Origin: Deltaproteobacteria bacterium
GTDB lineage: Bacteria; UBA10199; JACPAL01
Direction: 5' to 3'
Assembly (NCBI GenBank): GCA_016180845.1
Contig: JACPAK010000001.1
Coordinates: 225,707 to 289,706 of the forward strand
DNA: 64,000 nucleotides
Notes under the pieces: model-generated
What the model saw: the letters and a program-made list of their open reading frames with translations, nothing else
What the model was told of the DNA's origin: nothing
The model's database searches: none
Position numbers and translations under genes: made by a program
Shown: one piece after another, positions 13,382 to 30,773 of the stretch
Numbering within the stretch: position 1 is the first letter of the stretch
Layout of the letters: the number at the start of each line of letters is the position of its first letter

Positions 13382-13448
13382 TAAAGGCCCATCTGCTGCG
13401 TTACCTTGCATCTGGGACCTTTCTCAACATCCTTTTGGAGTGCCCAAG

Positions 13449-16475: not shown

Positions 16476-16477
16476 AT

Positions 16478-16870
16478 TCAGATCTGATCGATCGTCGTTC
16501 CTTCCGCCCACTTCCGGAAGGCTGACTTGACCTCTTTCCAGGAAGAATGGAGGGGACAGTGGTGGGCCCCTCCGCACCGCTTCCAGCCAAAAATGCAATG
16601 TCCGTCCCCTGATGGATAACCGATGGCCCTTAAAATATCATCGATCCGGATTGATTCCGGGGGAGAGGCGAGTCGGTATCCGCCATCAGGCCCCTTGCGG
16701 GAGAGAAGAAGTCTCTTGCGAACGAGCGATCTCAAGACTTTAAAGAGAAAAGGAAGGGGAACATGGGTTAATCGGGCGAGGTCGCTGGCGTTAATCCCTC
16801 GATCAACACCCTGTCTCATGATCTCAACCATCACTCGCAACGCATATTCTGCTGTCTTCGGAAGCTGCAT
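16478..16870 (-). CDS. Rrf2-family transcriptional regulator (IscR/NsrR-like) with three Fe-S ligand cysteines
   Basis: N-terminal MQLPKTAEYALRVM HTH. C-terminal C-x6-C-x5-C cluster (CIFGWKRCGGAHHC). Divergent from the nxr-like operon. Confidence 0.7.
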   Translation of the reverse strand: MQLPKTAEYALRVMVEIMRQGVDRGINASDLARLTHVPLPFLFKVLRSLVRKRLLLSRKGPDGGYRLASPPESIRIDDILRAIGYPSGDGHCIFGWKRCGGAHHCPLHSSWKEVKSAFRKWAEGTTIDQI

Positions 16871-16976
16871 AAAAAATATTCTAAGATGAACCATACCGAA
16901 ATCACCTGACCACAATCATGTGATCGGCTGATTCGAATCATTCTCTCGAGACACGACTTCTCGATAATGGACCTTG

Positions 16977-19900
16977 ATGTCCAAAATACATCCCCTTTCT
17001 CGGCGTGAGTTCTTAAAAAAGGCAGGGCTAGGTGCAGGGGCTTATGCACTTTTATCGTCCAGCACCTACGCCTATTTAAAACCGATTGTCGGGGTTGATA
17101 ACCCGCTCGAATTTTATCCTTCACGCGACTGGGAAAAGGTCTACCGGGATCAATATCGATACGATTCTTCCTTCACGTTTGTCTGTTCCCCGAATGACAC
17201 CCATGCCTGTCGCGTGCGGGCCTTTGTCCGCAATGGGATCCTGGTCCGGACAGAGCAGAACTATGATGTCCAGAGATATTCCGATCTTTACGGCAACAAG
17301 GCCTCCCCGAACTGGAATCCACGCATGTGTCCGAAGGGGTATACCCTGGCACAACGGATGTACGGTCCGAATCGGCTCAAGGATCCCGTGGTGCGCAAGG
17401 GATGGCGTGCGTGGGTCAAGGATGGCTGTCCCTATCTGACCCCGGAACTCAAAAAGAAATACAAGTTTGACAGTCGCGGAAGCGACGAACTCCAATTCAT
17501 CGCATGGGACGAGGCGTATGATCTGGCCGCTCGGGCGATGATTGCGATTGCCACTATGTACAATGGTGACGAGGGGGCCAAACGGCTTGCCGAAGAGGGA
17601 TACGTTCCCGAGATGATCCAGCGGATGGAGGGATCGGGGATGCGCACCCTGAAATACCGCGGTGGGATGGGACTCCTCGGGGTCATCGGAAAGTTCGGGA
17701 TGTATCGCTTCTCGAACATGATGGCGCTGGTCGACAGCCACCTCCGTGGCGTAGAAGAAAAAGAGGCGAAGGGGGGGCGGAGTTGGGACAACTACACCGA
17801 ACATGGGGACCAAGCCCCCGGCTATCCTTTTGTCCACGGACTCCAGACCTCCGATTGCGATTTTAATGACCTCCGCTTTACGAAGCTTCATATCCAATGC
17901 GGCAAGAACCTCGTCGAGAACAAGATGCCGGAGTCCCACTGGTTTATCGAATCAATTGAGCGAGGGGCGAAGGTCGTCACAATCACGCCGGAATACAGCC
18001 CACCCGCAACCAAATCGGATTACTGGATCCCGGTCCGACCCGCCTCCGATGCGGCAATTTTTCTTGGGATTGCGAAGATCCTGATCGACCGGAAGTGGTA
18101 CGATGCCGAGTTCGTCAAAAAATTTACCGATCTCCCGCTTCTGGTCCGGACGGACAACCTCAAACGCCTGCATGCCGCCGAGGTTTTCCCCGGATACCAG
18201 CCGGGGTTGAGTCCCGAGGGGGCAAGCCTCAAGGAGCAAGGTCTTACGAAGGAACAATACGGGCAGTTGGGAGATTTTGTCGTGCGAGACACCGTCTCCG
18301 GCGATTTCAAGGCGGTCACGCGTGACGACGTCGGAAACCATCTGAAGGAAAAAGGGATCGATCCGGTTCTCGAATGGAGAGGCATGGTCAAAATGGCCGA
18401 TGGAACCACTGTCGAGACAACGACACTATGGGAGGCGTACAAGATCCACCTCAAGGACTACGACCTCGACACCGTCGCCGAAGTCACTCAGGCACCGAAA
18501 GGGTTGATCGAACAGCTGGCGAAGGACCTTGCAACAATCAAACCGGCCGCGATCCATATGGGTGAGGGGATCAATCACTGGTTCCATGCGACCGAGGTGA
18601 ATCGAGCGACGCTGCTCCCGCTCATGCTGACCGGAAACATCGGGCAGCAGGGGGCTGGCTCATTCACCTGGGCGGGCAATTATAAATCGGCCAATTTTCA
18701 GGCGGCTCCGGGTGTCGGCGCTGGCTTGGGTGTCTGGGTCGCCGAGGACCCGTTTCATCCCACGCTTGATTCCAAAACTCCCGGCAAGGACGTGCAGGTT
18801 AAAAACTACGCCCTCGAGGAAGGGGCCTCTTATTGGGCGCACGGAGATCATCCGCTGATCGTTGAAACCCCAAAGTTTGGTCGGAAGATGTTTACCGGAA
18901 AGACCCACATGCCCTCTCCGACGAAGGGGATGTGGTTCACCAACGTGAATCACATTAATAATTCGAAGTGGGCCTACCAGGTGATCAAGAACGTCTTGCC
19001 GACCTGCAACATGATCGCCGTGACGGATGTCGAACTGAACGGAACGATCGAATATGCCGACATCGCCTTCCCGGCCAGTTGGTGGGCGGAAATCGAAAAC
19101 TACGAGGTCACCAGCTCCTGCTCCAATCCGTTCCTCCAGATCTGGAAGGGATCGCTCAAGCCTCCTCTCAATACAAAAGACGACGTCCAGATCCTCGCGG
19201 GAGTTGCGAAGCGGTTGGGGGAAATTTTGGGCGACCGGCGGTTTGAGGATTATTGGAAATTTGTCCACCAGAAAAAGACAGAGGTTTATATCCAGAGACT
19301 CCTCGATGCCTCGATGACACTCCACGGTTACCGTTTCGATGACATTATCACAGGGAAATATGGGGAACCGGGGGCTGCCCTGATGCTCTACAGGACCTAT
19401 CCCCGCATCCCCTTCTGGGAACAGGTCCACGAGGACAAGCCTTTCTTTACCGATACCGGCAGACTCAACAGTTATTGCGACATCCCGGAGGCGATCGAAT
19501 ACGGGGAAAATTTTATTGTCCACCGCGAGGGACCGGAGGCGACCCCTTACCTCCCCAACGCCATCCTTTCCACCAATCCCCTGGTTCGCCCGGAAGATTA
19601 TGGAATCCCACCGGACGATATGGAGGCGGAGGCGCGTCACGTCCGCAATATCAAGATGTCCTGGCAACAACTCAAGGGGACCGAAAATCCGCTCTGGAGG
19701 CAGGGGTTTCAGTTTTACTGTGTCACCCCGAAGACGCGGCACACCGTCCATTCGCAGTGGTCCAATGTCACCTGGAATCGTGTCTGGGCAAGCAACTTCG
19801 CCGACCAGTTGCGTGAGGACAAGCGGCAACCGGACGCTGCCGATCATCAAGTCCATATCAATCCGCAGGCGGCGAAGGACCTTGGGATCAACGACGGTGA

Positions 19901-20426
19901 TTATGTCTATGTCGACGCCAACCCTGCAGACCGACCCTACATTGGTTGGAAGCCGGACGACCCCTTTTATAAGGTGGCGCGTCTCATGCTCCGCGCGAAG
20001 TACAATCCGGCCTATCCCTATCACGTGATAATGATCAAACATGGGACATGGATCGCGACGGAAAAGACCGTCAAGGCCCACGAAACCCGTCCTGACGGCC
20101 GGGCGCTTTCGGAGACCGGCTACCAGGCAAATTTCCGGTACGGTTCCCAGCAAAGCATCACGCGCGAATGGGCGATGCCGATGCACCAAACCGACACCCT
20201 CTTTCACAAGGCAAGATTGGGGCAGAGGTTTCTCTTCGGCGGCGAGGCGGACAACCACATGATCAATACCGTCCCGAAGGAAACGCTGGTTCGCGTGGTC
20301 AAGGCGGAGGATGGCGGGCTCGGAGGCAAGGGAAAGTGGGAGGGTGCGACGACGGGCCACACGCCCGGAGATGAAAACAGAGAGATGCAGATCTATCTCG
20401 CAGGAAGGTTTATCAAAAATGGCTGA
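16977..20426 (+). CDS. nxrA: TAT-exported molybdopterin oxidoreductase alpha subunit, type II DMSO reductase family, nitrite oxidoreductase/nitrate reductase-like (NxrA/NarG family, periplasmic type)
   Basis: Twin-arginine signal (SRREFLKKAGLGAGA). FTFVCSPNDTHACRVRAF Fe-S/His motif of NarG-like enzymes. About 1150 aa, matching periplasmic NxrA. Confidence 0.75.
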   Translation: MSKIHPLSRREFLKKAGLGAGAYALLSSSTYAYLKPIVGVDNPLEFYPSRDWEKVYRDQYRYDSSFTFVCSPNDTHACRVRAFVRNGILVRTEQNYDVQRYSDLYGNKASPNWNPRMCPKGYTLAQRMYGPNRLKDPVVRKGWRAWVKDGCPYLTPELKKKYKFDSRGSDELQFIAWDEAYDLAARAMIAIATMYNGDEGAKRLAEEGYVPEMIQRMEGSGMRTLKYRGGMGLLGVIGKFGMYRFSNMMALVDSHLRGVEEKEAKGGRSWDNYTEHGDQAPGYPFVHGLQTSDCDFNDLRFTKLHIQCGKNLVENKMPESHWFIESIERGAKVVTITPEYSPPATKSDYWIPVRPASDAAIFLGIAKILIDRKWYDAEFVKKFTDLPLLVRTDNLKRLHAAEVFPGYQPGLSPEGASLKEQGLTKEQYGQLGDFVVRDTVSGDFKAVTRDDVGNHLKEKGIDPVLEWRGMVKMADGTTVETTTLWEAYKIHLKDYDLDTVAEVTQAPKGLIEQLAKDLATIKPAAIHMGEGINHWFHATEVNRATLLPLMLTGNIGQQGAGSFTWAGNYKSANFQAAPGVGAGLGVWVAEDPFHPTLDSKTPGKDVQVKNYALEEGASYWAHGDHPLIVETPKFGRKMFTGKTHMPSPTKGMWFTNVNHINNSKWAYQVIKNVLPTCNMIAVTDVELNGTIEYADIAFPASWWAEIENYEVTSSCSNPFLQIWKGSLKPPLNTKDDVQILAGVAKRLGEILGDRRFEDYWKFVHQKKTEVYIQRLLDASMTLHGYRFDDIITGKYGEPGAALMLYRTYPRIPFWEQVHEDKPFFTDTGRLNSYCDIPEAIEYGENFIVHREGPEATPYLPNAILSTNPLVRPEDYGIPPDDMEAEARHVRNIKMSWQQLKGTENPLWRQGFQFYCVTPKTRHTVHSQWSNVTWNRVWASNFADQLREDKRQPDAADHQVHINPQAAKDLGINDGDYVYVDANPADRPYIGWKPDDPFYKVARLMLRAKYNPAYPYHVIMIKHGTWIATEKTVKAHETRPDGRALSETGYQANFRYGSQQSITREWAMPMHQTDTLFHKARLGQRFLFGGEADNHMINTVPKETLVRVVKAEDGGLGGKGKWEGATTGHTPGDENREMQIYLAGRFIKNG

Positions 20427-20772
20427 AGAGGAAAACAAAGTGTCGGCGAGTGCAGGATCTGGCTTTGCCAGTCCGGAGCGAGAGGGGACCGGGGGGAAGG
20501 GGCCCTCTTCCGCTTGCGGAAGGGGCAGCGTTCCCCCCGATCCAGAAGACCCGTTTGAGATGGTCCAGCAGTTTATCGACGTGCCGGCGGATGACCGGTT
20601 CTACGATCAGATGGCCCGGACGTTCATCGAGGAATATTTAATGATGGGATGGAGTGACGAAGAAATCTTCAGTCTCTTTCAGGAACCTTTTTACAGAGGC
20701 ACGCATGATATTTTGCAAAAGAAGGGTGAGGCCTTCGTGAAGAGCCTGATCCATGAGGTGAGACATGGCTAA
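20419..20772 (+). CDS. Small hypothetical protein encoded between the alpha and beta subunits; low-complexity N-terminus
   Basis: The ATG overlaps the alpha stop codon. G/S/P-rich N-terminus, then a conserved-looking acidic helical segment. The ORF ends where the beta gene starts. Confidence 0.4.
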   Translation: MAEEENKVSASAGSGFASPEREGTGGKGPSSACGRGSVPPDPEDPFEMVQQFIDVPADDRFYDQMARTFIEEYLMMGWSDEEIFSLFQEPFYRGTHDILQKKGEAFVKSLIHEVRHG

Positions 20773-21964
20773 GGTGTACAACTGGCAGATCGGGCGCGAG
20801 ATGGATTATCCGTATGACGAGATCCATCCGAAACGGCAATTCGCCGCCGTTTTTAACACGAATCGTTGCATCGCCTGCCAGACCTGTTCGATGGCCTGCA
20901 AGTCGACCTGGACCTTCTCGAAGGGGCAGGAATATATGTGGTGGAATAACGTCGAGACAAAGCCTTACGGAGGGTATCCACGCAACTGGGATCTGAAAAT
21001 CCTCTCTCTCCTGGCCAAGGCGGATCCGACCGGAGAAAAAACGATCTTTGAGGCGGCTCCCAGCGGAGAGAGGGTCTTGGGTTATCTGCCGGACGATCAG
21101 GAATGGAAGGCACCGAATCTCTACGAAGATACCTCCACAAAATACGATTCCGGTTCTGCCTTGGGCCTTTCCGGAAAAGGGGTCAGTCTCCCCGAGCATA
21201 AGGCCTGGTTCTTCTACCTCCAGAGAATTTGTAACCACTGCACCTACCCTGCCTGCCTGGCCGCTTGTCCGCGCAAGGCGATCTATAAACGGCCGGAAGA
21301 TGGGATCGTCCTGATCGATCAAGAGCGTTGTCGAGGTTACCGAAAATGTATGGAGGCCTGCCCTTACAAGAAACCGATGTTCAATGCCGAGACGCGCGTC
21401 TCGGAAAAATGCATCGCCTGTTACCCAAGGATCGAGGGAAAAGACCCCCTCCTCAAGGGAAGGCGGATGGAGACCCGCTGCATGTCGGCCTGTGTCGGAC
21501 AGATTCGTTTGCAGGGACTGGTCGATATCAACAAGGACGGCAGCTGGACCGAAAACCAAAAAAGTCCGCTCTACTATCTCATCAAGAAAACGAAGATCGC
21601 CCTCCCGCTCTATCCGCAGTTCGGGACGGAACCGAATATTTACTACATCCCGCCACGTTGGGTTCCGAAATCCTACCTCCATCAGATGTTTGGACAGGGC
21701 GTCGATGAGGCGATCGACAGATACCTGGCACCCGATCGCGAATTGCTGGCGGTCCTTCAACTCTTCCGGCGGAGTCAGGAGATCATCTTCCGCTATGAGA
21801 TTGAAGAAGGGCCGAAGGTCTTTGAGACGACTGTTCATGGGAAGCCGTTTTCTCTCTACAACGACACGATCATCGCCTTCGCAGAGGATGGGAAAGAAAT
21901 CTTCCGAACGACGGTAGAGGAGCCGGTTCATATCCGACCCAAGGAGCGAACCAATGCTGTTTAA
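20765..21964 (+). CDS. nxrB: Fe-S beta subunit of the NXR/NAR-like enzyme (NxrB/NarH family, four Fe-S clusters)
   Basis: MAKVYNWQIGREMDYPYDE…CIACQTCSMACK…EYMWWNNVETKPYGGYP. Multiple ferredoxin-type Cys motifs. Confidence 0.8.
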   Translation: MAKVYNWQIGREMDYPYDEIHPKRQFAAVFNTNRCIACQTCSMACKSTWTFSKGQEYMWWNNVETKPYGGYPRNWDLKILSLLAKADPTGEKTIFEAAPSGERVLGYLPDDQEWKAPNLYEDTSTKYDSGSALGLSGKGVSLPEHKAWFFYLQRICNHCTYPACLAACPRKAIYKRPEDGIVLIDQERCRGYRKCMEACPYKKPMFNAETRVSEKCIACYPRIEGKDPLLKGRRMETRCMSACVGQIRLQGLVDINKDGSWTENQKSPLYYLIKKTKIALPLYPQFGTEPNIYYIPPRWVPKSYLHQMFGQGVDEAIDRYLAPDRELLAVLQLFRRSQEIIFRYEIEEGPKVFETTVHGKPFSLYNDTIIAFAEDGKEIFRTTVEEPVHIRPKERTNAV

Positions 21965-23135
21965 GTTGTTTCTCCCCCTTATTGCCTTCGTTTTTGGCTG
22001 TGCGGCTGGAGCCAAAACAGATCCGATGGCGGAGGAGCTTTTGTCCAAGCTCTCTCAAGAGGGGAACCTGATCACCGTCGCTCAAGCAAAAGGGGAAATC
22101 CCTACCGACCCCACAGATCCCGCATGGCAAACAACACCGGAATCAATAATTCCACTCGTCTCACAAACCTCTCTCTCCCCCAAAACCCCCGTCTTTCAAA
22201 GAACCGATATCTCCGTTCGTGTGCTTTATGCCGGCAAAGAGATCGGTTTCCTGATCTCCTGGAGTGACCCGACCCGGAGTGAGAGCGAGGCAGGTGTCAC
22301 AAAATTTCGCGATGCGGTCGCGATCGGGTTTGCGCCGAACCTCAAAAATGCCGATTCGCTTCCTTACATCGGAATGGGAAACAAGGGGCGTCCGATGGCT
22401 ATCTGGCACTGGAAGGCAAGCTGGCAAGAGGATGTCAACCACGGCTATCAAGGGGTCGGCGAAGCTCATGCAGGGATGGTACCGAATATTTCTCCTATCC
22501 CCCATCGAACCGCTGACGAGGCCGGCTCCCCGATGGCACAGATGAAACGAACAAGTCCCGTTGAAAACCTTCTCGCTGAGGGGTTCGGAACGCTCACGTC
22601 GATACCGGGCAAGAATTTAACCGGAAATGGGATCTGGAATCAGGGACGATGGCATGTCGTGGTCAAGGGGGTACGACGCGCCGGTGGGAAAGGGATAGAT
22701 CCGGTCACCTTCGCCATCTGGGATGGGGCGAAGGAGAATCGAAACGGAATGAAGGGTCTGACCCGGTGGCGATTTCTCCGTTTTGAAGGAGAACCGGTCC
22801 CGCCAGACCTGCTCAACTCATTGATCATCGGCCCCCTGCCAGGTGCCGATCCGAAGAGAGGCAAACAACTCGTCACAGAAATGGGCTGCGTCTCCTGCCA
22901 CAACTTTCCGAACAACCCGACAGCCAATGACGTCGGCCCGGATCTGGCACATGCCGGCTCGATCCATCGTCCGGAGTATCTCCTCGAGTCGATCAAAGAT
23001 CCGAACGCCGTTATTGTCCCGGCGCCCGGTTACTTCGACCCAGAGACCTGGACCTCGACGATGCCGTCCTTCGGCGATCAGATCCCAGAAAAGGATTACA
23101 ACGATGTCGTCGAATACTTGAGGAGTCTGCAATGA
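21954..23135 (+). CDS. Gamma subunit: EbdC/DMSO-reductase-type-II heme-b domain fused to a C-terminal class-I cytochrome c domain; lipoprotein
   Basis: Lipobox (LIAFVFGC). Ethylbenzene-dehydrogenase-gamma-like domain (IWHWKASWQED…). C-terminal CVSCHN with a downstream Met-containing segment. Confidence 0.65.
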   Translation: MLFKLFLPLIAFVFGCAAGAKTDPMAEELLSKLSQEGNLITVAQAKGEIPTDPTDPAWQTTPESIIPLVSQTSLSPKTPVFQRTDISVRVLYAGKEIGFLISWSDPTRSESEAGVTKFRDAVAIGFAPNLKNADSLPYIGMGNKGRPMAIWHWKASWQEDVNHGYQGVGEAHAGMVPNISPIPHRTADEAGSPMAQMKRTSPVENLLAEGFGTLTSIPGKNLTGNGIWNQGRWHVVVKGVRRAGGKGIDPVTFAIWDGAKENRNGMKGLTRWRFLRFEGEPVPPDLLNSLIIGPLPGADPKRGKQLVTEMGCVSCHNFPNNPTANDVGPDLAHAGSIHRPEYLLESIKDPNAVIVPAPGYFDPETWTSTMPSFGDQIPEKDYNDVVEYLRSLQ

Positions 23136-23782
23136 ACCATCCATCGGACCTCTATAAAATTCTTGCCATCTGCTTTCGTCGCCCGGATGAGCCTCTCTTC
23201 GAGATATTTCGAAAAACAGACTCCTTTCGGGACATCCTCAAGGGCACCTCATTAGAAGGACTGCTTTCGGAACATACGCGGCTTTTTTCCTTAAGCGTGG
23301 CGGGCGGGATTCCTCCCTATGAAACCGAATATGGGCATAAAGATATCTTCTTCAAGACACAGCGTATGGCAGACATCGCCGGCTTTTGTCATGCCTTTGG
23401 GGTTGAGACGACAGACACGCCCCCTGAACGAATAGACTTTATCGGGTCCGAGCTGGAATTGATGTATTGGATCACCCTTAAGGAACAAAGAGCCATGGAT
23501 GCGGGAAAGACCGAACAAGCCGAGATCTGCCGGGATGCCGCAGCCAAATTTCTTCAGGACCACCTGGGACGCTGGGGCTCTTATTTCGGAGATCAGATCG
23601 CAAAATCGGCACACCTTCCTTTTTACAAACAAGTTGGTCAATCGCTTTTTGAATTGATTGAATCCGAATGCGAGCGTCTGAACGTGCAACCGGAAAGGGT
23701 CACCGGATGGAATCCGGAGCCGCTTTCTGCCACGGAGTTTGAGTGTGGGAGTGAGACAGGGTGTAAAGGAGAACTTTCATGA
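23132..23782 (+). CDS. TorD/NarJ/DmsD-family cytoplasmic chaperone (delta subunit)
   Basis: ATGA coupling. E(Y)xxLF-type TorD signature (EHTRLFSL…). Redox-enzyme maturation protein context. Confidence 0.65.
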   Translation: MNHPSDLYKILAICFRRPDEPLFEIFRKTDSFRDILKGTSLEGLLSEHTRLFSLSVAGGIPPYETEYGHKDIFFKTQRMADIAGFCHAFGVETTDTPPERIDFIGSELELMYWITLKEQRAMDAGKTEQAEICRDAAAKFLQDHLGRWGSYFGDQIAKSAHLPFYKQVGQSLFELIESECERLNVQPERVTGWNPEPLSATEFECGSETGCKGELS

Positions 23783-24240
23783 CAAGTATCACCGACTATT
23801 ACGCAAAAGACCATGACCGACTGGACGGTCTCTTCAAGACCTTCCAGTCAACCAAGAGAACTGATTTCGGGAGGGCGAAGGTGGCATTCGTTGAATTTAA
23901 ATTTGGTCTCCAGAGACATATCATCTGGGAGGAGGATATCCTCTTCCCCTTCTTTGAACAAAAGACGGGGATGAGGGATGGTAGCCCGACCGCTGTCATG
24001 CGAATGGAGCATCGTGAGATCCGTGACGCGCTCGAAAGCATCCACGCGAAGGTCGCCAAAAAAGACCCGAACTCCGATGAGTCAGAGGAGAGACTCGTCA
24101 CCGTCCTGACACAACATAACGTGAAGGAGGAGGAGATCCTCTATCCGGCTATCGATCGCTTGCTAACAGATCAAGAGAAGGAAACTGTTTTCAAGAGGAT
24201 GGAAGACATACCCCCGGAACGCTATGAAACCTGTTGCTGA
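23779..24240 (+). CDS. Hemerythrin-like (HHE cation-binding) domain protein
   Basis: H…HxxxE spacing (HREIRDALE, HNVKEEEILYP, DHDRL). Confidence 0.6.
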   Translation: MTSITDYYAKDHDRLDGLFKTFQSTKRTDFGRAKVAFVEFKFGLQRHIIWEEDILFPFFEQKTGMRDGSPTAVMRMEHREIRDALESIHAKVAKKDPNSDESEERLVTVLTQHNVKEEEILYPAIDRLLTDQEKETVFKRMEDIPPERYETCC

Positions 24241-24324
24241 CGAAGATCATGTTGACAGCTGTCTGCAGTCATTTCTGTGGCTCCCCCTTCTTTGGATAAT
24301 CGTCATTAATTGGAGGAGGTTTTT

Positions 24325-24501
24325 ATGCGTCTTGGACCTTGGGAAATAGCAGCGATTGTTGTTGTGGCCCTCTTGATCTTCGGCCCCTCGAAACTCCCGA
24401 AGCTTGGTCAGAGTTTGGCGGAGTTTTTCAGGAATTTCAAAAAAGGGGTCAAGGAGGTCGAGAAGGAAGGAGAAGAGATCAAGAAGAGTCTGACGCCCTG
24501 A
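24325..24501 (+). CDS. tatA: Twin-arginine translocase subunit TatA/E
   Basis: MRLGPWEIAAIVVVALLIFGPSKLPKLGQSLAEFFRNFKK. GGAGGAGG Shine-Dalgarno at the correct spacing. The ORF-track TTG start lies upstream. Confidence 0.8.
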   Translation: MRLGPWEIAAIVVVALLIFGPSKLPKLGQSLAEFFRNFKKGVKEVEKEGEEIKKSLTP

Positions 24502-24628
24502 ACTCTAGAATCCGATCCCTCCGACCTAAACCCCTCGAAGGGCATGGTCGCAGGGACGGGGTAGCGCGGGAAACGGCGCTGCCTCCCGATTCCCGCTTGC
24601 TGCGGGATGAATTGGAAAGGAGCCCGGT

Positions 24629-25846
24629 GTGATTTCCGCTCATGAAGCGCAAAACATTATCCTCGAAAAAACAAGCCGGCTTGGAAACGAAGAGGTCCCC
24701 CTGTCCCTGTCGCTGCACCGATACCTCGCAGAGCCGATCACTGCCCCGATCGATCTTCCACCCTTTGACAACGCCGCTATGGATGGCTTTGCAATTCAAA
24801 GTGGCGATACGAAAACTGCCTCGGCCCAAAACCCGGTCACATTAAAAGTTGTTGGGACAATCGCTGCTGGAGATGCTCCCTCTCAAGCCGTTCTCAAATC
24901 AGGCGAATATTTCCGAATCATGACGGGGGCTCCCGTTCCGGATGGTGCCGATGCCGTCGTGCCCTTTGAAGAGGCTGTTCACACCCCCCTTGAGGTAAGA
25001 ATCATAAAACCAGTTCCCTCAGGTTCCAATATCCGCCTTGCCGGTGAGGATGTAAAAAAGGATCAAAGGATTCTCGATGTCGGAGAAAAGATCACCTCTC
25101 GTACGATTGCGCTCCTGGCGGCATTAGGTGTTTATCGAATCCCGGTTTTCAGGCATCCGAACATCAAGATCCTCGTAACCGGAAGCGAACTCACCGCCGT
25201 CGGACACCCTCTGCACGATGGAAAGATCTATAACAGCAATGGCCCTGCACTGACGGCCGCGTTACAAGAAATCGATATTATCCCTCAAATAGTCGTCTCC
25301 TCCGCGGATGTCGTCTCTGATCTCAAAACCTTCTTCACAGCCTCAGAAGAGGCGGATGCGCTGATAACAATCGGGGCGGTTTCCACCGGCGATTTTGATT
25401 TTATCCCTCAGGTCCTGAAGGGGATCGGTGCCGAAATAGCCTTTCACAAGGTCTCCATAAAACCAGGCAAGCCGCTCCTCTTCGCCACTTGGAAAGGGAA
25501 ACCGATCTTTGGGCTCCCAGGGAATCCGGTCTCCGCCCTAATGGTTTTTGAGCGCTTTGTCCGACCGGCACTCCTCAAGATGATGGGGGCAAATAATTTT
25601 TTACGAAGACGAGGGATCGCGGTCGCTACCGAAACTCTGTCTGGGAGCTTGGGCAAGGAAAACTATCTCCGAGGAATCGTTGAATCGTCTGGCAATGGAT
25701 CCCATGCCCGCTCCGCCGGGAAGCAAGGATCAGCCCATCTTCTTCCACTCGCTCGAGCTAATGCGATCTTGATCGTCCCTCCTGAAAAAGAGGAGATCCG
25801 CGCCGGAGAAACAGTCGAATTCGAAACATTTTTGGAGGAACTATGA
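24629..25846 (+). CDS. moeA: Molybdopterin molybdotransferase MoeA
   Basis: MoeA N-terminal domain (…PFDNAAMDGFA…) and MoCF-binding region (GGVSTGDFD-like). GTG start with a GGAAAGGAG Shine-Dalgarno. Confidence 0.8.
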   Translation: MISAHEAQNIILEKTSRLGNEEVPLSLSLHRYLAEPITAPIDLPPFDNAAMDGFAIQSGDTKTASAQNPVTLKVVGTIAAGDAPSQAVLKSGEYFRIMTGAPVPDGADAVVPFEEAVHTPLEVRIIKPVPSGSNIRLAGEDVKKDQRILDVGEKITSRTIALLAALGVYRIPVFRHPNIKILVTGSELTAVGHPLHDGKIYNSNGPALTAALQEIDIIPQIVVSSADVVSDLKTFFTASEEADALITIGAVSTGDFDFIPQVLKGIGAEIAFHKVSIKPGKPLLFATWKGKPIFGLPGNPVSALMVFERFVRPALLKMMGANNFLRRRGIAVATETLSGSLGKENYLRGIVESSGNGSHARSAGKQGSAHLLPLARANAILIVPPEKEEIRAGETVEFETFLEEL

Positions 25847-26088
25847 AGATAAAACTCCGTTTTTTCTCACTGCTTCATCATTACTTTGGCACCGGAGAAA
25901 TGGAAACCAATCTTGATTCTCCAAAAACCGTTCAAGAAGTTTTTTTTGATCTGTTTGAGGACAAGGAACTCGCGGAGAAACTAGCGCGATCGATCCGGTT
26001 TGCCGTGAACTGGGAATATGTCGAGCCGGAGATGGTCGTCCACGAAGGTGACGAAGTCGCATTTATACCACCTGTTAGCGGAGGATAG
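25843..26088 (+). CDS. moaD: Molybdopterin synthase sulfur-carrier subunit MoaD
   Basis: 81 aa ending in GG. ATGA overlap with moeA. Confidence 0.75.
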   Translation: MKIKLRFFSLLHHYFGTGEMETNLDSPKTVQEVFFDLFEDKELAEKLARSIRFAVNWEYVEPEMVVHEGDEVAFIPPVSGG

Positions 26089-26090
26089 AG

Positions 26091-26495
26091 ATGATTGAAA
26101 TAACCGAAAGGGCAATCAACGTTTCGAAAGTTCTTCAATCAATCCTTGCGAAAGAGGCAGGGGCCCTCGCTCATTTCATTGGAACGATTCGAAAAGAGGA
26201 AGAGATTTCTGGACTTTTCTACGAATGCTATCCGGGGATGGCCCAAAAGACCCTCGAAAAAATTTCGACAGAAGCAAAAAAGAAATGGCCTCTTTTCAAA
26301 ATCTCCATTGTCCATCGTTATGGCTGGGTCGGTCTCGGCGAGCCGTCTGTTGTGATTGCCGTCTCAAGCGCGCATCGAAAAGAGGCGTTCGAGGCCTGCC
26401 AGTTTATCATCGATCAGATCAAAGAGAGGGTGCCGATCTGGAAGCGTGGGTTGCCGGCCAGAGAAGAGAGGTTTGCCTATGCCGAAAATCAATGA
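26091..26495 (+). CDS. moaE: Molybdopterin synthase catalytic subunit MoaE
   Basis: 134-aa MoaE-like protein immediately after moaD. Confidence 0.75.
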   Translation: MIEITERAINVSKVLQSILAKEAGALAHFIGTIRKEEEISGLFYECYPGMAQKTLEKISTEAKKKWPLFKISIVHRYGWVGLGEPSVVIAVSSAHRKEAFEACQFIIDQIKERVPIWKRGLPAREERFAYAENQ

Positions 26496-27057
26496 TGTGA
26501 CCGGCGTTATTTTAGCGGGCGGGAGATCAAGCCGTTTCGGAACCAACAAGGCGCTCGCCCTTTTCCAGGGGATCCCCCTGATCGATCGGGTTCTGAATGT
26601 CATGAGTCCGCTCTTCCATGACCTGATGATCGTCACCAACACGCCGGAGATTTACGAACGCCTGCATCTCCCCCTTGTGAAAGATTTCGAACCCTACTTA
26701 GGACCGTTGGGAGGAATTTACACCGCCCTCCGAGAGACGAGAAACGATCGAATCTTTGTTGTCGGCTGCGACATGCCACTGCTGGATCCAAAAGTCATCT
26801 CGGGAATCATCCAGAAGTCAGAGGAAGCGGATGCGGTTGTACCGATTCACGACGGCATCCGTGAGTTCCTGATGGCAGTCTATTCCCGCAAACTCCTCCC
26901 GGAGATCTGCAAGAGCCTTGGCGAAGGAAGGCTTTCCGTAAAGGAGCTCTGTTTTCATATACCGTGTATCGAATGGATCCCGGTCAAGGGGGATTCCTGG
27001 ACCGCGATCAATACCGCTGAGGAACTCAAAAAATTGGAGGAGAGGTATGCTCGTTGA
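26478..27057 (+). CDS. mobA: Molybdenum cofactor guanylyltransferase MobA
   Basis: GVILAGGRSSRFG…NKAL motif. Internal ATG at 26478; the longer track ORF overlaps moaE out of frame. Confidence 0.75.
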
Positions 27058-28033: not shown

Positions 28034-28035
28034 AC

Positions 28036-28941
28036 ATGATCGACATCTCGGATAAAATCGAAACCCTTCGAACCGCTGTCGCCGAGTCAAAGGTGATTGC
28101 CAAAAAAGAGACAATCGACAGGGCAGTTCGTGGTGAGACTCCTAAAGGAGAGGTTCTTCCGATTGCTCGAGCCGCAGCGGTACTGGCGGCAAAAAAGACA
28201 TCGGAACTGATTCCCTATTGCCACCCACTTCCTCTGGATTCTGTCACTATTTCATTTGAACCTGAAAATTCGCGAATTCTCATCCGCTCTGAAGTGAAGA
28301 CAGTTGGAAGGACTGGTGTTGAGATGGAGGCGTTAACAGCAGCTTCTATTGCTGCCCTCACGATTTACGACATGGTCAAGGGAATCGATAAAGAAGTGGC
28401 CATCGGCGAAACGAGACTTGTCGAAAAACATGGAGGGAAGAGCGATTTTGAGGAAAAATTTCTCACCCCTCTTCGAACCGCTGTCCTCGTCACCTCGGAC
28501 TCTGTCTCAGAGGGAAAGAAGACGGACAAATCGGGCAAATTCATTGTGGACGAGATGAAGAAATTTCCCGTCGTAGTCCAGCATTATGAGATCGTCCCCG
28601 ATGAGAAGGAAAAAATTCGCCAAAAGATAGTGTCCTGGATCGAAGAGGGAATTCAACTCATCCTAACCACAGGGGGCACAGGGCTAGGGCCCAGAGATGT
28701 CACCGTAGAGACGGTCCGGGAGATAAGCGAGCGGGAGGTGCCAGGCATCGCCGAGGCAATGCGAGTCTTCGGCCAAAGACGAACACCGTACGCAATGCTC
28801 TCACGTGGAGTTGTGGGCGTCAGGAGAAACACACTCATCGTTACATTCCCCGGCTCTTCCAATGGTGTCAGAGAATCGATACGAGCAATCTTTCCGAATG
28901 TGCTGCATGCCTTCAATATGATGACGGGGGGAAGACATTAA
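28036..28941 (+). CDS. Bifunctional MoaC (cPMP synthase) / MogA-MoaB-like molybdopterin adenylyltransferase fusion
   Basis: N-terminal MoaC (…IPYCHPLPLDSV…). C-terminal MoCF-biosynthesis domain with TTGGTGLGPRD. Confidence 0.75.
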   Translation: MIDISDKIETLRTAVAESKVIAKKETIDRAVRGETPKGEVLPIARAAAVLAAKKTSELIPYCHPLPLDSVTISFEPENSRILIRSEVKTVGRTGVEMEALTAASIAALTIYDMVKGIDKEVAIGETRLVEKHGGKSDFEEKFLTPLRTAVLVTSDSVSEGKKTDKSGKFIVDEMKKFPVVVQHYEIVPDEKEKIRQKIVSWIEEGIQLILTTGGTGLGPRDVTVETVREISEREVPGIAEAMRVFGQRRTPYAMLSRGVVGVRRNTLIVTFPGSSNGVRESIRAIFPNVLHAFNMMTGGRH

Positions 28942-28944
28942 AAT

Positions 28945-29703
28945 ATGCCAGACCCGATTTTTTATTTGATGCCGCTATTTTTTTTAACGGCCCTCATCTA
29001 CTCAACAGTCGGACTTGGAGGCGGATCAACGTATCTCGCCCTGCTGGTTCTCTTTTCAATCCCCTACCAGGCGATCCCGAAGATCGGCCTCATCTGTAAC
29101 CTGATTGTCGTGACGGGGGGATGTTTCTTCTATATAAAGGAAGGGCACTTCTCCTTCAAAAAAACAGTTCCATTTGTCCTAACCTCGATCCCCTTCGCCT
29201 ACCTCGGAGGACGGATTCCGATTCAGAAGGAATTTTTTCAACTTCTCTTAGGTTTTTCCCTTCTCGCCGCCGCCGTCAGGATGCTCCTCGCAGAAAAGGC
29301 CTACTCCGCCTCAGGTTCCATCGGATGGAAGAAATCTCTTCTGATCGGGTTGCCCATCGGCGCCCTTCTTGGTCTTCTCTCGGGGCTTGTCGGGATCGGT
29401 GGAGGAATCTTTCTCTCTCCCCTCCTCTGTCTCCTTCACTGGACAGATGCGAAAGGGGCCGCTGCCTCAGCCAGTTTCTTCATCCTCGTAAATTCCCTGG
29501 CAGGGTTGTCAGGACAGATCATGAAAAGTGGCGTTCTTCCGGAGATGATCTTCATCATTCCTCTGGGTGTGGCAGCATTGTTAGGGGGTCAGATCGGAAG
29601 TCGGCTCGGATCCCGCGAGATCCCAAAACTTGCCGTTCAGAGGATCACATCAATTCTGATCTTTTTTGTGGCAGGCCGCCTTCTCTGGAACGGATTTTTA
29701 TGA
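28945..29703 (+). CDS. TSUP/TauE-SafE-family (DUF81) membrane exporter
   Basis: Two-repeat polytopic protein with GLGGG…G motifs. Confidence 0.6.
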   Translation: MPDPIFYLMPLFFLTALIYSTVGLGGGSTYLALLVLFSIPYQAIPKIGLICNLIVVTGGCFFYIKEGHFSFKKTVPFVLTSIPFAYLGGRIPIQKEFFQLLLGFSLLAAAVRMLLAEKAYSASGSIGWKKSLLIGLPIGALLGLLSGLVGIGGGIFLSPLLCLLHWTDAKGAAASASFFILVNSLAGLSGQIMKSGVLPEMIFIIPLGVAALLGGQIGSRLGSREIPKLAVQRITSILIFFVAGRLLWNGFL

Positions 29704-30773
29704 TCATCAAGCCCTCACTCAGACTCCTCTTCTGGGAAACAACGACGGGATGCAATCTCGCCTGTATCCACTGCCGCCGTTTGGATGTCGCCACGGAGAT
29801 GATGCGAGATGACTTAAGCCTCGCCGAATCCTTCACCTTTATTCAGCAATTAAGAGAAGTGGGTCATTGCATTCTCGTCCTCTCCGGCGGTGAACCTCTG
29901 ATTCGAAAAGATATCTTCGATATCGCGCAGTATGCCAACTGGCAGGGACTCACCGTTGCGCTCGCGACAAACGGGACCCTGATTGATCGCGATGTCGCTT
30001 CCAAAATCCGAAAATCGGGAATCCATCGTGTCGCAATCAGCATTGATGGAAGTGATCCAAGCACGCATGATGATTTTCGCAAACAACCTGGCTCTCTCGC
30101 CGGAGCCCTTCAGGGAATGACCTTCTGTCGGCAGGAAGGGATCAGTCTGCAGATCAACTGCACGATCACTCAGCATAACGTCCATCAACTGGATCCGCTT
30201 TATCAATTGGCCCTCGAGCACCAGGCGGATGCGTTTCACCTCTTCATGTTGGTCCCGGTCGGCTGCGGGATGTCAATCGCCGATAGCCACATGCTCTCAG
30301 CCGAGAAGTATGAGGAGGTTCTAAATTGGATCTATGATCGGGCTCAGGAAAAAAAGATGTTTGTAAAGGCGACCTGCGCGCCGCACTATTTTCGGGTAGT
30401 GAATCAACGAGCTAAAAAAGAGCACCGCCCAATCGGGGGGGAGAAACAGGGGATGCATGCCTTTACCCGTGGTTGTTTGGCCGGCACCGACATCTGTTTC
30501 GTCTCGCACAAGGGCGACGTCTTCCCGTGTGGCTACCTTCCAGTTCCAGCTGGGAATATCCGTCATCAATCGTTCCGTGAGATCTGGGAAAAATCACCCG
30601 TCTGGGAAGGCTTCCGAAACACCGATCTTCTCGAAGGAAAGTGTGGGCTCTGCGAGTTCAAGAATATCTGTCTAGGCTGCCGGGCCCGCGCCTATTACGC
30701 CACAGGAAATTTTCTCGCGGAGGAGCCGTACTGTGCCTATGAACCGGTTGCCATGAGAAGGAGGGCCCGATGA
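29700..30773 (+). CDS. Radical SAM/SPASM-domain protein, AhbD/NirJ-like (heme synthase family)
   Basis: CNLACIHC radical-SAM motif. C-terminal SPASM Cys cluster (CAPHYF…CLAGTDICFVSHKGDVFPCGYLP…CGLCEF…CLGCRARAY). Confidence 0.6.
   Translation: MIIKPSLRLLFWETTTGCNLACIHCRRLDVATEMMRDDLSLAESFTFIQQLREVGHCILVLSGGEPLIRKDIFDIAQYANWQGLTVALATNGTLIDRDVASKIRKSGIHRVAISIDGSDPSTHDDFRKQPGSLAGALQGMTFCRQEGISLQINCTITQHNVHQLDPLYQLALEHQADAFHLFMLVPVGCGMSIADSHMLSAEKYEEVLNWIYDRAQEKKMFVKATCAPHYFRVVNQRAKKEHRPIGGEKQGMHAFTRGCLAGTDICFVSHKGDVFPCGYLPVPAGNIRHQSFREIWEKSPVWEGFRNTDLLEGKCGLCEFKNICLGCRARAYYATGNFLAEEPYCAYEPVAMRRRAR

Follow-up and report, generated by a model that had tools for sequence, protein, structure and literature searches.

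The closest described systems are nitrite oxidoreductases (NXR), among which NXR-ABC of Kuenenia stuttgartiensis (KsNXR; PDB 7B04; Chicano et al. 2021, PMC8387239) is the best solved relative of all three subunits encoded by the locus analyzed here. KsNXR catalyzes both reaction directions in vitro (PMC8387239). The enzymes of Nitrospina gracilis and Nitrospira (Lücker et al. 2010, 2013; PMC3578206) combine a Tat-signal NxrA with a hitchhiking NxrB, the gene order nxrABC and a TorD-like chaperone, and the present locus shares these traits. Nitrospina has additional gamma-like proteins with a haem b domain and one to three haem c sites (PMC3578206). Also similar are the orphan nxr clusters of Planctomycetota and other MAGs (Suarez et al. 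2023, PMC10732223), which encode a poorly annotated 'molybdopterin oxidoreductase' scoring above 1000 bits against KsNxrA and belong to lineages not known for nitrite oxidation; some have an 'iron-dependent transcriptional regulator' (Rrf2) nearby. Organisms with enzymes of the NXR clade include nitrite oxidisers and nitrate reducers alike (PMC10732223). More distant are the soluble periplasmic type II DMSO-reductases PcrAB, EbdABC, SerABC and ClrABC, which resemble the locus in Tat-exported alpha and beta subunits, an EB_dh haem b gamma subunit, a TorD/NarJ-like chaperone and exchange with c-type cytochromes, but differ in substrate and in alpha similarity (156–176 bits). E. coli NarGHJI is of the same superfamily, also binds Mo through an Asp and likewise has a NarH-like Fe-S subunit and a chaperone of the NarJ family; unlike the enzyme described here, it is cytoplasmic, lacks functional Tat export, has a His-ligated FS0 cluster and uses the dihaem membrane subunit NarI, which is missing from this locus.

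Organization and conservation of the locus

The locus belongs to an uncultured groundwater "Deltaproteobacteria" MAG and was analyzed within a stretch of 64,000 nucleotides, referred to as the window. The nxr module occupies positions 16478–24501 and continues into molybdenum cofactor (Moco) genes (Table 1). Its product is very probably an NXR-type nitrite:nitrate oxidoreductase that the Tat system exports to the periplasm, and nearly all the genes for building this enzyme lie alongside. The enzyme family is already known, and the locus adds another member. All genes named in a first-pass annotation of this DNA were found in this interval with the motifs described there; its operon description had overlooked a 117-aa gene, the lipoprotein and cytochrome c nature of the gamma subunit, a riboswitch and the absence of moeB, and it did not mention the AhbD/AhbC-like haem-synthesis genes further downstream.

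Table 1. Features of the nxr module and adjoining genes (positions in the window)
Feature	Position	Strand	Evidence
Rrf2-family Fe-S regulator, divergent from nxrA	16478..16870	-	PF02082 E=6.9e-26
Divergent intergenic promoter/operator region, 106 nt	16871..16976	.	direct reading
nxrA, Mo-bisMGD catalytic subunit with Tat signal, 1149 aa	16977..20426	+	7B04_B match
Conserved small gene, 117 aa	20419..20772	+	start overlaps nxrA stop; stop overlaps nxrB start
nxrB, Fe-S electron-transfer subunit, 399 aa	20765..21964	+	7B04_A 615 bits; PF13247 E=1e-24
nxrC, gamma subunit: EB_dh haem b and C-terminal class I cytochrome c domains	21954..23135	+	PF09459 E=7.9e-19; PF00034 E=2.3e-9
NarJ/TorD-family maturation chaperone	23132..23782	+	PF02613 E=1.3e-14
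Cytoplasmic hemerythrin-like (HHE) di-iron protein	23779..24240	+	PF01814 E=6.9e-19
tatA, 58 aa	24325..24501	+	PF02416 E=7.7e-16; TIGR01411 58.4 bits, cutoff 53.9
Moco/Tuco riboswitch aptamer RF01055, P3-less	24500..24636	+	51.8 bits, gathering score 36
moeA, molybdopterin molybdenumtransferase	24629..25846	+	PF03453, PF00994, PF03454
moaD	25843..26088	+	PF02597 E=1.9e-13
moaE	26091..26495	+	PF02391 E=1.2e-37
mobA, MGD synthesis	26479..27057	+	PF12804 E=1.8e-38
moaA	27047..28033	+	PF04055, PF06463
moaC fused to mog/moaB-type MoCF domain	28036..28941	+	PF01967 E=2.3e-50; PF00994 E=3e-31
TauE/SafE-family membrane protein, last conserved gene of the module	28945..29703	+	PF01925 E=2.9e-32
AhbD-like radical SAM/SPASM protein (haem b synthase-like)	29700..30773	+	TIGR04545 453 bits, cutoff 500
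AhbC/NirJ1-like radical SAM/SPASM protein	30770..31948	+	TIGR04054 514 bits, TIGR04546 511 bits, cutoffs 650

The Pfam and NCBIfam matches of the operon genes have E-values far below chance, and from nxrA through the hemerythrin gene successive stop and start codons overlap, as in an operon. The gene order was found again in two related "Deltaproteobacteria" groundwater MAGs, L081 and L085, where a 15-gene module is collinear with the window. Identity to the window is 87–88% for NxrA, 87–90% for NxrA/B, 43–74% for the accessory proteins and 63% for seryl-tRNA synthetase. NxrA falls in a well-supported clade that excludes the anammox and Nitrospinota sequences. It shares only 63% identity with the protein of Kuenenia hertensis, the Kuenenia sequence compared, and about 64% with a Nitrospinota sequence that comes from a MAG rather than from cultured Nitrospira or Nitrospina.

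Several features set the locus apart from the described systems. In contrast to Nitrospina and Nitrospira, the host is an unclassified groundwater MAG that is not a known nitrite oxidiser, and the Moco genes, tatA, hemerythrin and Rrf2 genes are all linked to the enzyme genes. Unlike in Kuenenia, no anammoxosome or tubule context is seen for this locus. The orphan clusters of Suarez et al. belong to another lineage and another NxrA subclade. The gene order here is nxrA-small gene-nxrB-nxrC-narJ, whereas most Planctomycetota and Omnitrophota loci have nxrC upstream of nxrA.

Catalytic and electron-transfer subunits

NxrA starts with MSKIHPLSRREFLKK, in which the Tat motif SRREFLK occupies residues 8–14, and contains the motif region FTFVCSPNDTHACRVRA; the twin-arginine signal and the FxFVCSPNDTHxCRxRA-type motif ascribed to it earlier can thus both be read directly. 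Against KsNXR-A (7B04_B) it scores 1729 bits over its full length (residues 7–1147), compared with 176 bits for PcrA, 156 bits for EbdA and about 101–106 bits for NarG structures. NxrB behaves similarly, with 615 bits against NXR-B and 184–214 bits against PcrB, EbdB and NarH. These scores bear out the proposed resemblance of both subunits to periplasmic NXR rather than to cytoplasmic NarGH, and NxrA clusters with neither NarG nor the chlorate, selenate or ethylbenzene enzymes. A cytoplasmic Nar identity was rejected on the NarG scores and the presence of the Tat motif, and a chlorate- or selenate-enzyme identity on the PcrA and EbdA scores. The matches to the NCBIfam type II DMSO-reductase alpha, beta and gamma models and to narG all fall below cutoff (for NxrA, TIGR03479 336 versus 985, ebdA 170 versus 2000, and TIGR01580 narG 131.6 versus 1084), so the family assignment rests on similarity to 7B04 and not on a curated model.

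NxrA keeps the 3Cys/1Asp ligand set of FS0 known from KsNXR, along with the substrate Asn and the Asp that binds Mo. C70, N73, D74, C78, C118 and D278 of NxrA correspond to C67, N70, D71, C75, C115 and D275 of the Kuenenia enzyme (residues named in PMC8387239) and are nearly invariant in 81 homologues; D278 is the Mo ligand that the first-pass annotation had proposed to inspect. The FS0 ligands of EBDH, by comparison, are 3Cys/1His (PMC8387239). Given this conserved active site and the approximately 62–64% identity to the anammox and Nitrospinota-MAG NxrA compared, nitrite and nitrate are by far the best-supported substrate pair, and the earlier statement that the substrate cannot be read from the sequence was too cautious.

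NxrB begins with MAKVYNWQIGREMDYPYDE and contains CIACQTCSMAC, which agrees with the start and the QTCSMAC motif reported before. Its sequence has no signal peptide. Its 15 cysteines form four groups (4+4+3+4), a pattern consistent with three [4Fe-4S] clusters and one [3Fe-4S] cluster. The best PDB match of NxrC is KsNXR-C (7B04_C; E=7e-16, 61 bits), and Met141 and Lys267 align with the Met155/Lys305 haem b ligands of this EB_dh-type gamma subunit. Unlike the Kuenenia protein, NxrC has an additional cytochrome c domain, with its haem c site at CVSCH (residues 312–316), and a lipobox-type Cys at the end of the signal peptide (...FVFGC16). This Cys is found at the same place in both relatives, and NxrC is probably a lipoprotein. 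The fused cytochrome c domain occurs only among loci of the clade whose NxrA is 76% or more identical to that of the window; in contrast to Nitrospina, the haem b/haem c protein is here the operon-encoded gamma subunit. The lipoprotein and cytochrome c character of NxrC is an addition to the first-pass annotation.

Regulatory and accessory genes

The Rrf2 gene lies on the minus strand, facing away from nxrA, and its product has the three cysteines expected from the first reading (Cys92, Cys99, Cys105), which are followed by His108. It exceeds the cutoff of TIGR00738 (98 versus 73.3 bits) and falls below those of IscR (52 versus 207) and NsrR (27.6 versus 182). An Rrf2 gene is also found upstream of nxrA in L081, L085, L031 and L002. 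The Rrf2-nxrA intergenic region holds a short perfect palindrome, TGATTCGAATCA; comparison with L081 revealed no shared operator, and a promoter scan of the spacer remained at chance level.

The TorD-type chaperone and the hemerythrin-like protein named previously were both recovered by their Pfam matches. The best NCBIfam match of the chaperone, whose gene is joined to nxrC by a 4-nt ATGA overlap, is TIGR03482 (type II DMSO-reductase chaperone; 51 bits, below cutoff). The hemerythrin-like protein carries H12, H47xxxE51, H78 and H113xxxE117 and shows only partial, sub-cutoff similarity to YtfE/RIC. Its gene has an equivalent position in L081 and L085 and lies close to nxr in nine fetched loci. 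The tatA gene, whose ATG is preceded by GGAGGAGG, stands as described; its designation as dedicated extrapolates from the 64-kb window.

Cofactor genes and the riboswitch

Between tatA and moeA there is a riboswitch, and L081 and L085 have it in the same place. The match spans the full RF01055 model (1–135) with the P3 hairpin deleted, as in both relatives. It overlaps the ribosome-binding site and start codon of moeA, whose AAGGAG and GTG fall in its 3' part. The succession moeA-moaD-moaE-mobA-moaA-moaC/mog, which had been described as a full Moco set directly after the operon, follows with the riboswitch in between, and it is nearly complete rather than full because the cluster (24629–28941) lacks both a moeB-type activating enzyme and a molybdate transporter. 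The start of mobA was set at ATG 26479, so that it overlaps moaE by 17 nt; L085 shows the same arrangement. The TauE/SafE gene has an equivalent position in both relatives, while the adjacency of the AhbD-like gene to the module is not kept in them.

Proposed maturation and catalysis

In the cytoplasm, the products of the moeA-to-moaC/mog genes would synthesize Mo-bisMGD, with the Moco-class riboswitch gating translation. The NarJ/TorD-like chaperone may grip the twin-arginine signal of apo-NxrA and let go once cofactor and FS0 cluster have been inserted. The Tat system, to which the cluster supplies an extra TatA copy, would then export folded NxrA with NxrB carried along. NxrC would be exported separately and probably lipid-anchored at Cys16, tethering the complex at the membrane surface. 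The reaction NO2- + H2O <-> NO3- + 2H+ + 2e- is expected to take place at Mo, with Asp278 holding the metal and Asn73 positioning the substrate. Electrons would pass from FS0 (3Cys/Asp74) through the four NxrB clusters to the Met/Lys haem b of NxrC and its fused haem c, which could exchange them with periplasmic cytochromes in either direction. The divergent Fe-S Rrf2 regulator probably ties expression to NO, redox or Fe-S status.

Reaction direction and alternative interpretations

Two physiological directions have to be weighed. Nitrate respiration by a facultative anaerobe is given an even chance; the cell would then use the enzyme as a respiratory nitrate reductase in the periplasm, with an ACIII/bc-type complex taking electrons from the quinol pool and c-type cytochromes delivering them to the NxrC haem c. 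Nitrite oxidation yielding energy or electrons is a less probable, though serious, proposal, in which the host would represent a lineage of nitrite oxidisers, obligate or facultative, that has so far escaped notice and passes NXR electrons via haem b and haem c to cytochrome c oxidase. The small remainder falls to other roles. Respiration is in line with the presence of Ca. Methanoperedens and Thermogutta terrifontis, both nitrate reducers, in the enzyme clade (PMC10732223) and with the in vitro nitrate reduction by KsNXR (PMC8387239). However, the operon has no quinol-oxidising subunit, and the cultured organisms studied physiologically with enzymes this near KsNXR and Nitrospina NXR all oxidise nitrite. 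The identity of NxrA to its anammox and Nitrospinota-MAG counterparts, the periplasmic orientation, the high-potential Met/Lys pair of haem b (PMC8387239) and the haem b/haem c gamma-like proteins of Nitrospina gracilis ('alt_NxrC'; PMC3578206) argue for oxidation, as proposed by Suarez et al. for similar orphan clusters (PMC10732223). Nearby genes give mixed signals. An anaerobic way of life is suggested by several genes of the window, namely those for 2-oxoacid:ferredoxin oxidoreductase, Nfn/GltD-like and rubrerythrin-like proteins, AhbC/D radical-SAM haem synthesis, an NrfD/Fe-S/cytochrome c module and multihaem cytochromes, one of them with 23 haems, and a conditional Fe-S regulator with a hemerythrin would suit an accessory respiratory module under nitrite or NO stress. 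In L085, by contrast, COX1/COX3/COX4 of a haem-copper, aa3-type oxidase lie 4.5 kb upstream of the module, an adjacency not conserved in the window or L081. The window also contains arginine-catabolism and other heterotroph-like genes, and no oxidase, reverse-electron-transport genes or CO2-fixation marker (e.g., ATP-citrate lyase) were found within it, which speaks against oxidation. Moreover, the 277 confirmed GTDB-species stretches with the enzyme cover many bacterial lineages not known as nitrite oxidisers, so possession of the enzyme is a weak predictor of that lifestyle.

It is very improbable that the real substrate is chlorate, perchlorate, selenate, ethylbenzene or DMS. An EB_dh-type gamma subunit is common to those soluble periplasmic enzymes, and the best NCBIfam names are generic type II DMSO-reductase alpha, beta, gamma and chaperone models; yet the PcrA and EbdA scores are about ten times below that of NXR-A, and the TIGR03479 and ebdA matches stay far under their cutoffs. 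Chlorate reduction occurs as a side activity in NXR and Nar enzymes and would be only that here. The substrate-positioning Asn is kept, whereas EbdA has Ile (PMC8387239). Use of tungsten instead of molybdenum, hinted at by the 'Tuco-type' riboswitch of the window and both relatives, is rated marginally lower still. In 17 of 19 organisms, P3-less RNAs went along with tungsten-cofactor metabolism, but they often lie upstream of general molybdopterin-synthesis genes, as here, and the Tuco assignment was made without biochemical demonstration (Regulski et al., PMC2408646). Within the window there is no tungstate transporter. The high-potential nitrite/nitrate couple is typical of Mo chemistry. Given the riboswitch type, Mo rather than W as the cofactor metal is an assumption.

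The small gene between nxrA and nxrB

The 117-aa gene is absent from the gene list of the first-pass annotation, and its product matches the annotated hypothetical protein HYT76_01270 at 100% identity. A Pfam search with the protein gave no match. Its AF2 model is a five-helix domain (block-mean pLDDT 84–93 for residues 61–117) that matched no fold in the PDB. Together with the co-translated hemerythrin-like protein, it may be regarded as a putative accessory factor. The gene was not detected beside the fetched nxrA copies of Kuenenia hertensis or Anammoxibacter. With a profile HMM, a family member was found after nxrA in 72 fetched loci, and the family comprises 425 representatives of 53–195 aa.

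Organization of the nxr module

The gene layout proposed in the first-pass annotation for this enzyme of the nitrite oxidoreductase (NXR) type was reproduced by an ORF map and translations. An Rrf2 regulator gene, described there as divergent and bearing three cysteines, does face a set of tightly packed plus-strand genes across a 106-nt spacer, and the predicted alpha and beta subunits, chaperone, hemerythrin and TatA were all recognized by Pfam and NCBIfam. The same databases identify the nxrA product as a molybdopterin oxidoreductase and the nxrB product as a four-cluster ferredoxin-type subunit. From nxrA through the hemerythrin gene, adjacent genes overlap by 4-11 nt, which indicates one translationally coupled unit. 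Downstream of tatA follow moeA, moaD, moaE, mobA, moaA and a moaC-mog/moaB fusion. Calling this cofactor (Moco) set "full" was a slight overstatement, since it contains neither a moeB-type activating enzyme nor a molybdate transporter.

Positions of the module components and of other mapped features in the window
Feature	Position	Strand	Remarks
Rrf2 regulator gene	16478-16870	-	ATG start giving MQLPKTAEYALR
nxrA	16977-20426	+	Starts MSKIHPLSRREFLKK; contains FTFVCSPNDTHACRVRA
Small post-nxrA gene, 117 aa	20419-20772	+	ORF filling the apparent 338-nt nxrA-nxrB gap; absent from the first-pass annotation
nxrB	20765-21964	+	Starts MAKVYNWQIGREMDYPYDE; contains CIACQTCSMAC
EB_dh + cytochrome c protein (gamma, NxrC)	21954-23135	+	Pfam/NCBIfam
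NarJ/TorD-family chaperone	23132-23782	+	Pfam/NCBIfam
HHE hemerythrin-domain protein	23779-24240	+	Pfam/NCBIfam
TatA	24325-24501	+	Pfam/NCBIfam
Predicted Moco riboswitch, RF01055	24500-24636	+	51.8 bits vs gathering 36; full model matched
AhbD-like and AhbC/NirJ1-like radical-SAM/SPASM genes	29700-31948	+	Directly after the Moco/TauE genes; both just below cutoff
Long ORF, 935 aa	32048-34855	-	
Long ORF, 495 aa	47887-49374	+	
Long ORF, 842 aa	49444-51972	+	
Long ORF, 807 aa	53412-55835	+	

Family assignment of the enzyme

The subunits were compared with all PDB chains. The best match of the alpha subunit was NXR-A of Kuenenia stuttgartiensis (KsNXR; 7B04_B), with 1729 bits over residues 7-1147, followed at much lower scores by perchlorate reductase PcrA (176 bits), ethylbenzene dehydrogenase EbdA (156 bits) and E. 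coli NarG (~101-106 bits). The beta subunit likewise matched NXR-B (7B04_A, 615 bits) ahead of PcrB (214), EbdB (212) and NarH (184-187), and the best PDB match of the gamma subunit was NXR-C (E=7e-16). The narG and narH models (TIGR01580, 131.6 vs cutoff 1084; TIGR01660, 195.7 vs 524) and the curated type II DMSO-reductase models TIGR03479/03478/03477 (alpha 336 vs 985, beta 270 vs 481, gamma 107 vs 170) all remained below cutoff; consequently, the enzyme belongs neither to canonical Nar nor to the chlorate/selenate/ethylbenzene subfamily. The ebdA model gave 170 for alpha against a cutoff of 2000, and the operon holds no NarI-family gene, its gamma subunit being of the EB_dh type. The first-pass annotation had named two outcomes that would overturn its reading, namely a cytoplasmic NarG, in which case the Tat signal would have been a mis-call, and a chlorate, selenate or ethylbenzene enzyme. 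Both are ruled out by these scores. The locus is related to the chlorate, perchlorate, selenate, ethylbenzene and DMS enzymes, yet is placed by its model scores outside the curated type II DMSO-reductase subfamily.

Residue-level comparison leads to the same family. In KsNXR-A, the FS0 cluster is bound by C67, D71, C75 and C115, an unusual 3Cys/1Asp set, while N70 positions the substrate and D275 is a Mo ligand (PMC8387239); the numbering of the 7B04 chain was confirmed to be the same as in that paper. The corresponding residues of the window NxrA are C70, D74, C78 and C118 for FS0, together with N73 and D278, so that the Mo-ligand Asp that the first-pass annotation had singled out for inspection is present. 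These columns are kept in 74-81 of the 81 homologues. NxrA begins with a twin-arginine signal (SRREFLKK, residues 8-15) followed by a hydrophobic stretch, whereas NxrB has no signal peptide and starts MAKVYNWQIG. The 15 Cys of NxrB form four groups (4+4+3+4), which matches the expectation of three [4Fe-4S] clusters plus one [3Fe-4S] cluster (FS1-FS4). In the gamma subunit, an EB_dh domain was detected (PF09459, E=7.9e-19), and the Ks haem b axial ligands Met155 and Lys305 are matched in the alignment by Met141 and Lys267. At the sequence level, all three subunits carry the features predicted for a periplasmic NXR of the Nitrospira/Nitrospina/anammox type.

The gamma subunit shows two further features. 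The last residues of its signal peptide, FVFGC16, resemble a lipobox, with the Cys at the same place in two related "Deltaproteobacteria" groundwater MAGs, L081 (GCA_016180855.1) and L085 (GCA_016177765.1), and its C-terminus is a class I cytochrome c domain with CVSCH at 312-316 and the motif TMPSF. Fusion to cytochrome c is confined to the clade whose identity to the window NxrA is 76% or more. It recalls the "alt_NxrC" proteins of Nitrospina gracilis, which combine haem b and haem c (PMC3578206). The combination of lipobox and cytochrome c in a gamma subunit is a point of real interest.

A small gene between nxrA and nxrB

The 117-aa gene is joined to both neighbors, sharing nucleotides of its ATG with the stop of nxrA (ATGGCTGA) and those of its own stop with the start of nxrB. 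It is 100% identical to the annotated HYT76_01270 of the host contig. The C-terminal ~75 residues of its product are conserved directly 3' of nxrA in 57 of the 81 fetched loci by tblastn, and a profile HMM found the gene in 72 fetched loci. Of the loci in which tblastn and profile HMM did not find it, roughly half are contigs ending at or inside nxrA; the others include the archaeal locus, one Dehalococcoidia locus and the nxrA copies fetched from Kuenenia hertensis and Anammoxibacter. When 1.84 billion representatives were searched with a profile, a family of 425 members was obtained, and among the matches listed (150 of 425) all are stand-alone proteins of 53-195 aa. Pfam holds no family for the protein, even at E <= 1, and the protein has neither a signal peptide nor a universally conserved Cys or His.

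The AlphaFold model describes a compact five-helix domain (block-mean pLDDT 84-93 for residues 61-117), for which Foldseek gave no PDB match at E <= 0.001. The window copy carries a 32-residue low-complexity Gly/Ser/Pro-rich insertion near its N-terminus (20419-20550), which is missing from all 16 close homologues (70-87 aa). Our interpretation is that the protein may assist assembly of periplasmic NXR or be an additional, so far uncharacterised subunit of it, and a gene that is near-universal and yet unannotated is of real interest in itself.

Conservation, relatives and host

The entire module, from the divergent Rrf2 gene through tauE, is found with the same genes in the same order in L081 and in L085, where it lies on a 1.36-Mb contig. 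Between the window and L085, identity reaches 88% for NxrA and 90% for NxrB, with 43-74% for the other module proteins and 63% for seryl-tRNA synthetase. Such values are in line with vertical inheritance in this lineage and a tighter constraint on the catalytic subunits. In L081, MoaE and MobA are fused into one protein of 314 aa (13159-14103), whereas the window and L085 have separate genes overlapping by 17 nt. Parts of this linkage recur in other phyla: Omnitrophota and Elusimicrobia loci have nxr beside tatA and Moco genes, and in some loci of Planctomycetota and Omnitrophota the gene after narJ encodes a hemerythrin.

A protein search with NxrA yielded 2136 homologues at E <= 1e-50 among the candidates scored, and a scan of GTDB species gave 277 confirmed stretches from many phyla, of which 80 loci were kept. 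The records cover a wide range of bacterial lineages and one archaeon (Hydrothermarchaeaceae). An unrooted neighbor-joining tree was built from 82 NxrA sequences, including Kuenenia, Anammoxibacter and a Nitrospinota MAG, without outgroups and without cultured Nitrospira or Nitrospina sequences; it shows an NxrA subclade and not a rooted placement. The window groups with L081, L085 and the fetched loci L001 and L005 (85-88% identity), then with L002, L003 and L031 (~76%), and then with one Elusimicrobia and one Coatesbacteria sequence, each step with a bootstrap of 100/100. The window NxrA is 62-64% identical to Kuenenia hertensis, Ca. Anammoxibacter and a Nitrospinota MAG. For comparison, KsNXR-A shares ~60% identity with Nitrospira and Nitrospina, ~40% with Nitrotoga and ~20% with Nitrobacter-type NXR and NarG (PMC8387239).

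The host is a nearly closed MAG labeled "Deltaproteobacteria bacterium" by NCBI, with a contig of 804,652 bp. Other "Deltaproteobacteria" MAGs without finer classification supply most of its closest seryl-tRNA synthetases (60-77% identity). In the protein collection, the window seryl-tRNA synthetase and small ORF have 100% matches, both on this contig, while the best match of NxrA reaches only 87%, the host's own NxrA not being among the matches. A search by assembly accession found no literature on the related assemblies, and PMC10732223 contains no discussion of OFTM47.

Regulation and cofactor supply

The regulator passed the Rrf2 superfamily model (98 vs 73.3). Its identity as a true IscR or NsrR is ruled out by the equivalog scores (52 vs 207 and 27.6 vs 182, respectively), and its best sub-cutoff matches are of the SUF/IscR type and not of the NsrR type. 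It carries the pattern Cys92/99/105-His108, whose spacing we take to resemble that of IscR. Regarding a possible Rrf2 operator, the window spacer holds only a short palindrome, and a 12-nt inverted repeat in L081 is not common to the window. Promoter and terminator scans over 16300-32100 gave counts at shuffled expectation. The hemerythrin has a full di-iron ligand set in a single HHE domain; its matches to the RIC/YtfE models reach 42-44 bits against cutoffs of 205-254 and cover ~50 residues. These scores, together with the lack of the two-domain architecture, rule out a true YtfE/RIC protein.

The predicted Moco riboswitch is placed between tatA and moeA and overlaps the AAGGAG and GTG start of moeA. 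It occurs at the same position in L081 (11550-11715) and L085 (14022-14147), and the P3 hairpin is missing from all three copies. Regulski et al. (2008, PMC2408646) found RNAs of the P3-less class ahead of genes for molybdopterin synthesis and linked the class to organisms that metabolize a tungsten cofactor. No tungstate transporter is present in the window. A gene for a TauE-family membrane protein, conserved in both relatives, follows the Moco genes.

AhbD/AhbC-type proteins belong to the siroheme-dependent, O2-independent haem pathway. The genes for such proteins are joined to the module in the window only, and not in L081 or L085. An oppositely oriented tRNA-Pro gene reaches into the end of the AhbC/NirJ1-like gene.

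The enzyme family, Tat export, EB_dh gamma subunit, chaperone and orphan nxr clusters in unexpected phyla have already been described. The self-contained packaging with tatA, a cofactor pathway and a P3-less riboswitch is, in turn, of real interest.

Proposed mechanism and direction of the reaction

The sequence shows a Mo-bisMGD subunit that has a Tat signal and ligands of the NXR type, a beta subunit with four clusters and a haem b/haem c gamma subunit, accompanied by a family chaperone, tatA, a cofactor pathway with its riboswitch and an Fe-S Rrf2 regulator. The steps linking them are inferred from what is established about NarJ/TorD chaperones, Tat hitchhiking and KsNXR. Cofactor insertion would take place in the cytoplasm under control of the chaperone, after which NxrAB would be exported via Tat, while NxrC would be exported separately and lipid-anchored. 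Electrons would then pass between Mo, FS0, FS1-4, haem b, haem c and periplasmic cytochromes.

The evidence on the direction of the reaction is mixed. KsNXR works in both directions in vitro (PMC8387239), and the same clade contains both nitrite oxidisers and nitrate reducers (PMC10732223). Nitrate respiration is given about an even chance of being the in vivo direction. The neighboring genes in the window suggest a facultative anaerobe, given the 2-oxoacid:ferredoxin oxidoreductase, Nfn/GltD-like and rubrerythrin-like genes and the NrfD/Fe-S/tetrahaem module, as well as the 23-haem lipoprotein cytochrome, radical-SAM haem synthesis and arginine-catabolism genes. Nitrite oxidation is the less likely but still serious candidate: with cofactors of high potential throughout, the chain is suited to passing electrons to an oxidase, and L085 has haem-copper oxidase genes (COX1, COX3, COX4_pro and COX3, at 1-3408) 4.5 kb upstream of its Rrf2 gene. 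In the window and L081, no such genes are adjacent to the module. Other roles take up the small remaining probability. Among the genes between the COX genes and the Rrf2 gene of L085 is one for an IS200-type Y1 transposase.

If nitrite oxidation were the direction in vivo, these groundwater "Deltaproteobacteria" could represent an unrecognised lineage that gains energy or electrons from it. A lipid-anchored NXR would have its gamma subunit wire haem b directly to the fused cytochrome c, and assembly would depend on the small protein family that is near-universal in periplasmic NXR operons and yet has escaped notice. As a whole, this picture is rather unlikely, and the possibility of such a lineage is of real interest. 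The nitrogen-cycle potential deduced from metagenomes depends on whether such close NXR homologues make or consume nitrate. As a clean, complete and conserved example, the locus makes it possible to test the direction of the enzyme in non-canonical hosts, the role of the small nxrA-nxrB protein, and why tatA, a cofactor pathway and a P3-less riboswitch accompany the enzyme.

Other genes in the window

No Pfam match at E <= 0.001 was obtained for the four long ORFs in the table. Upstream of the module, a minus-strand gene (5455-9009) encodes an 1184-aa protein with 23 CxxCH motifs, Big_5 Ig-like domains and a lipobox-type LLFGC N-terminus. NCBIfam gave no match for this very large multihaem cytochrome, whose kind is associated with electron transfer over long range or to the cell exterior. 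In the region 56-4228, the plus strand encodes an NrfD-type membrane subunit, a 4-haem cytochrome c and an Fe-S protein truncated at the window edge, and the minus strand small 2-haem and 7-haem cytochromes; together they are an ACIII/Qrc/DsrP-like quinone-interacting module that could connect the quinone pool with periplasmic cytochromes.

At 9417-12443 (+), three adjoining genes cover successive parts of the "trifunctional" NCBIfam model PRK12775, with FAD/NAD-binding sulfide/DHOD-like, GltD/NADPH-glutamate-synthase-like and rubrerythrin/ferritin-like subunits, and form an Nfn-like module split over three ORFs. The alpha and beta genes of a 2-oxoacid:ferredoxin oxidoreductase (13086-15784, +; every equivalog score below cutoff) lie directly upstream of the isochorismatase and Rrf2 genes, and L081 also has a POR-type gene after the module. 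A nitrogen-assimilation cluster at 40715-45172 (+) comprises genes for an OmpL-like porin, an AmtB ammonium transporter, a P-II protein and glutamine synthetase.
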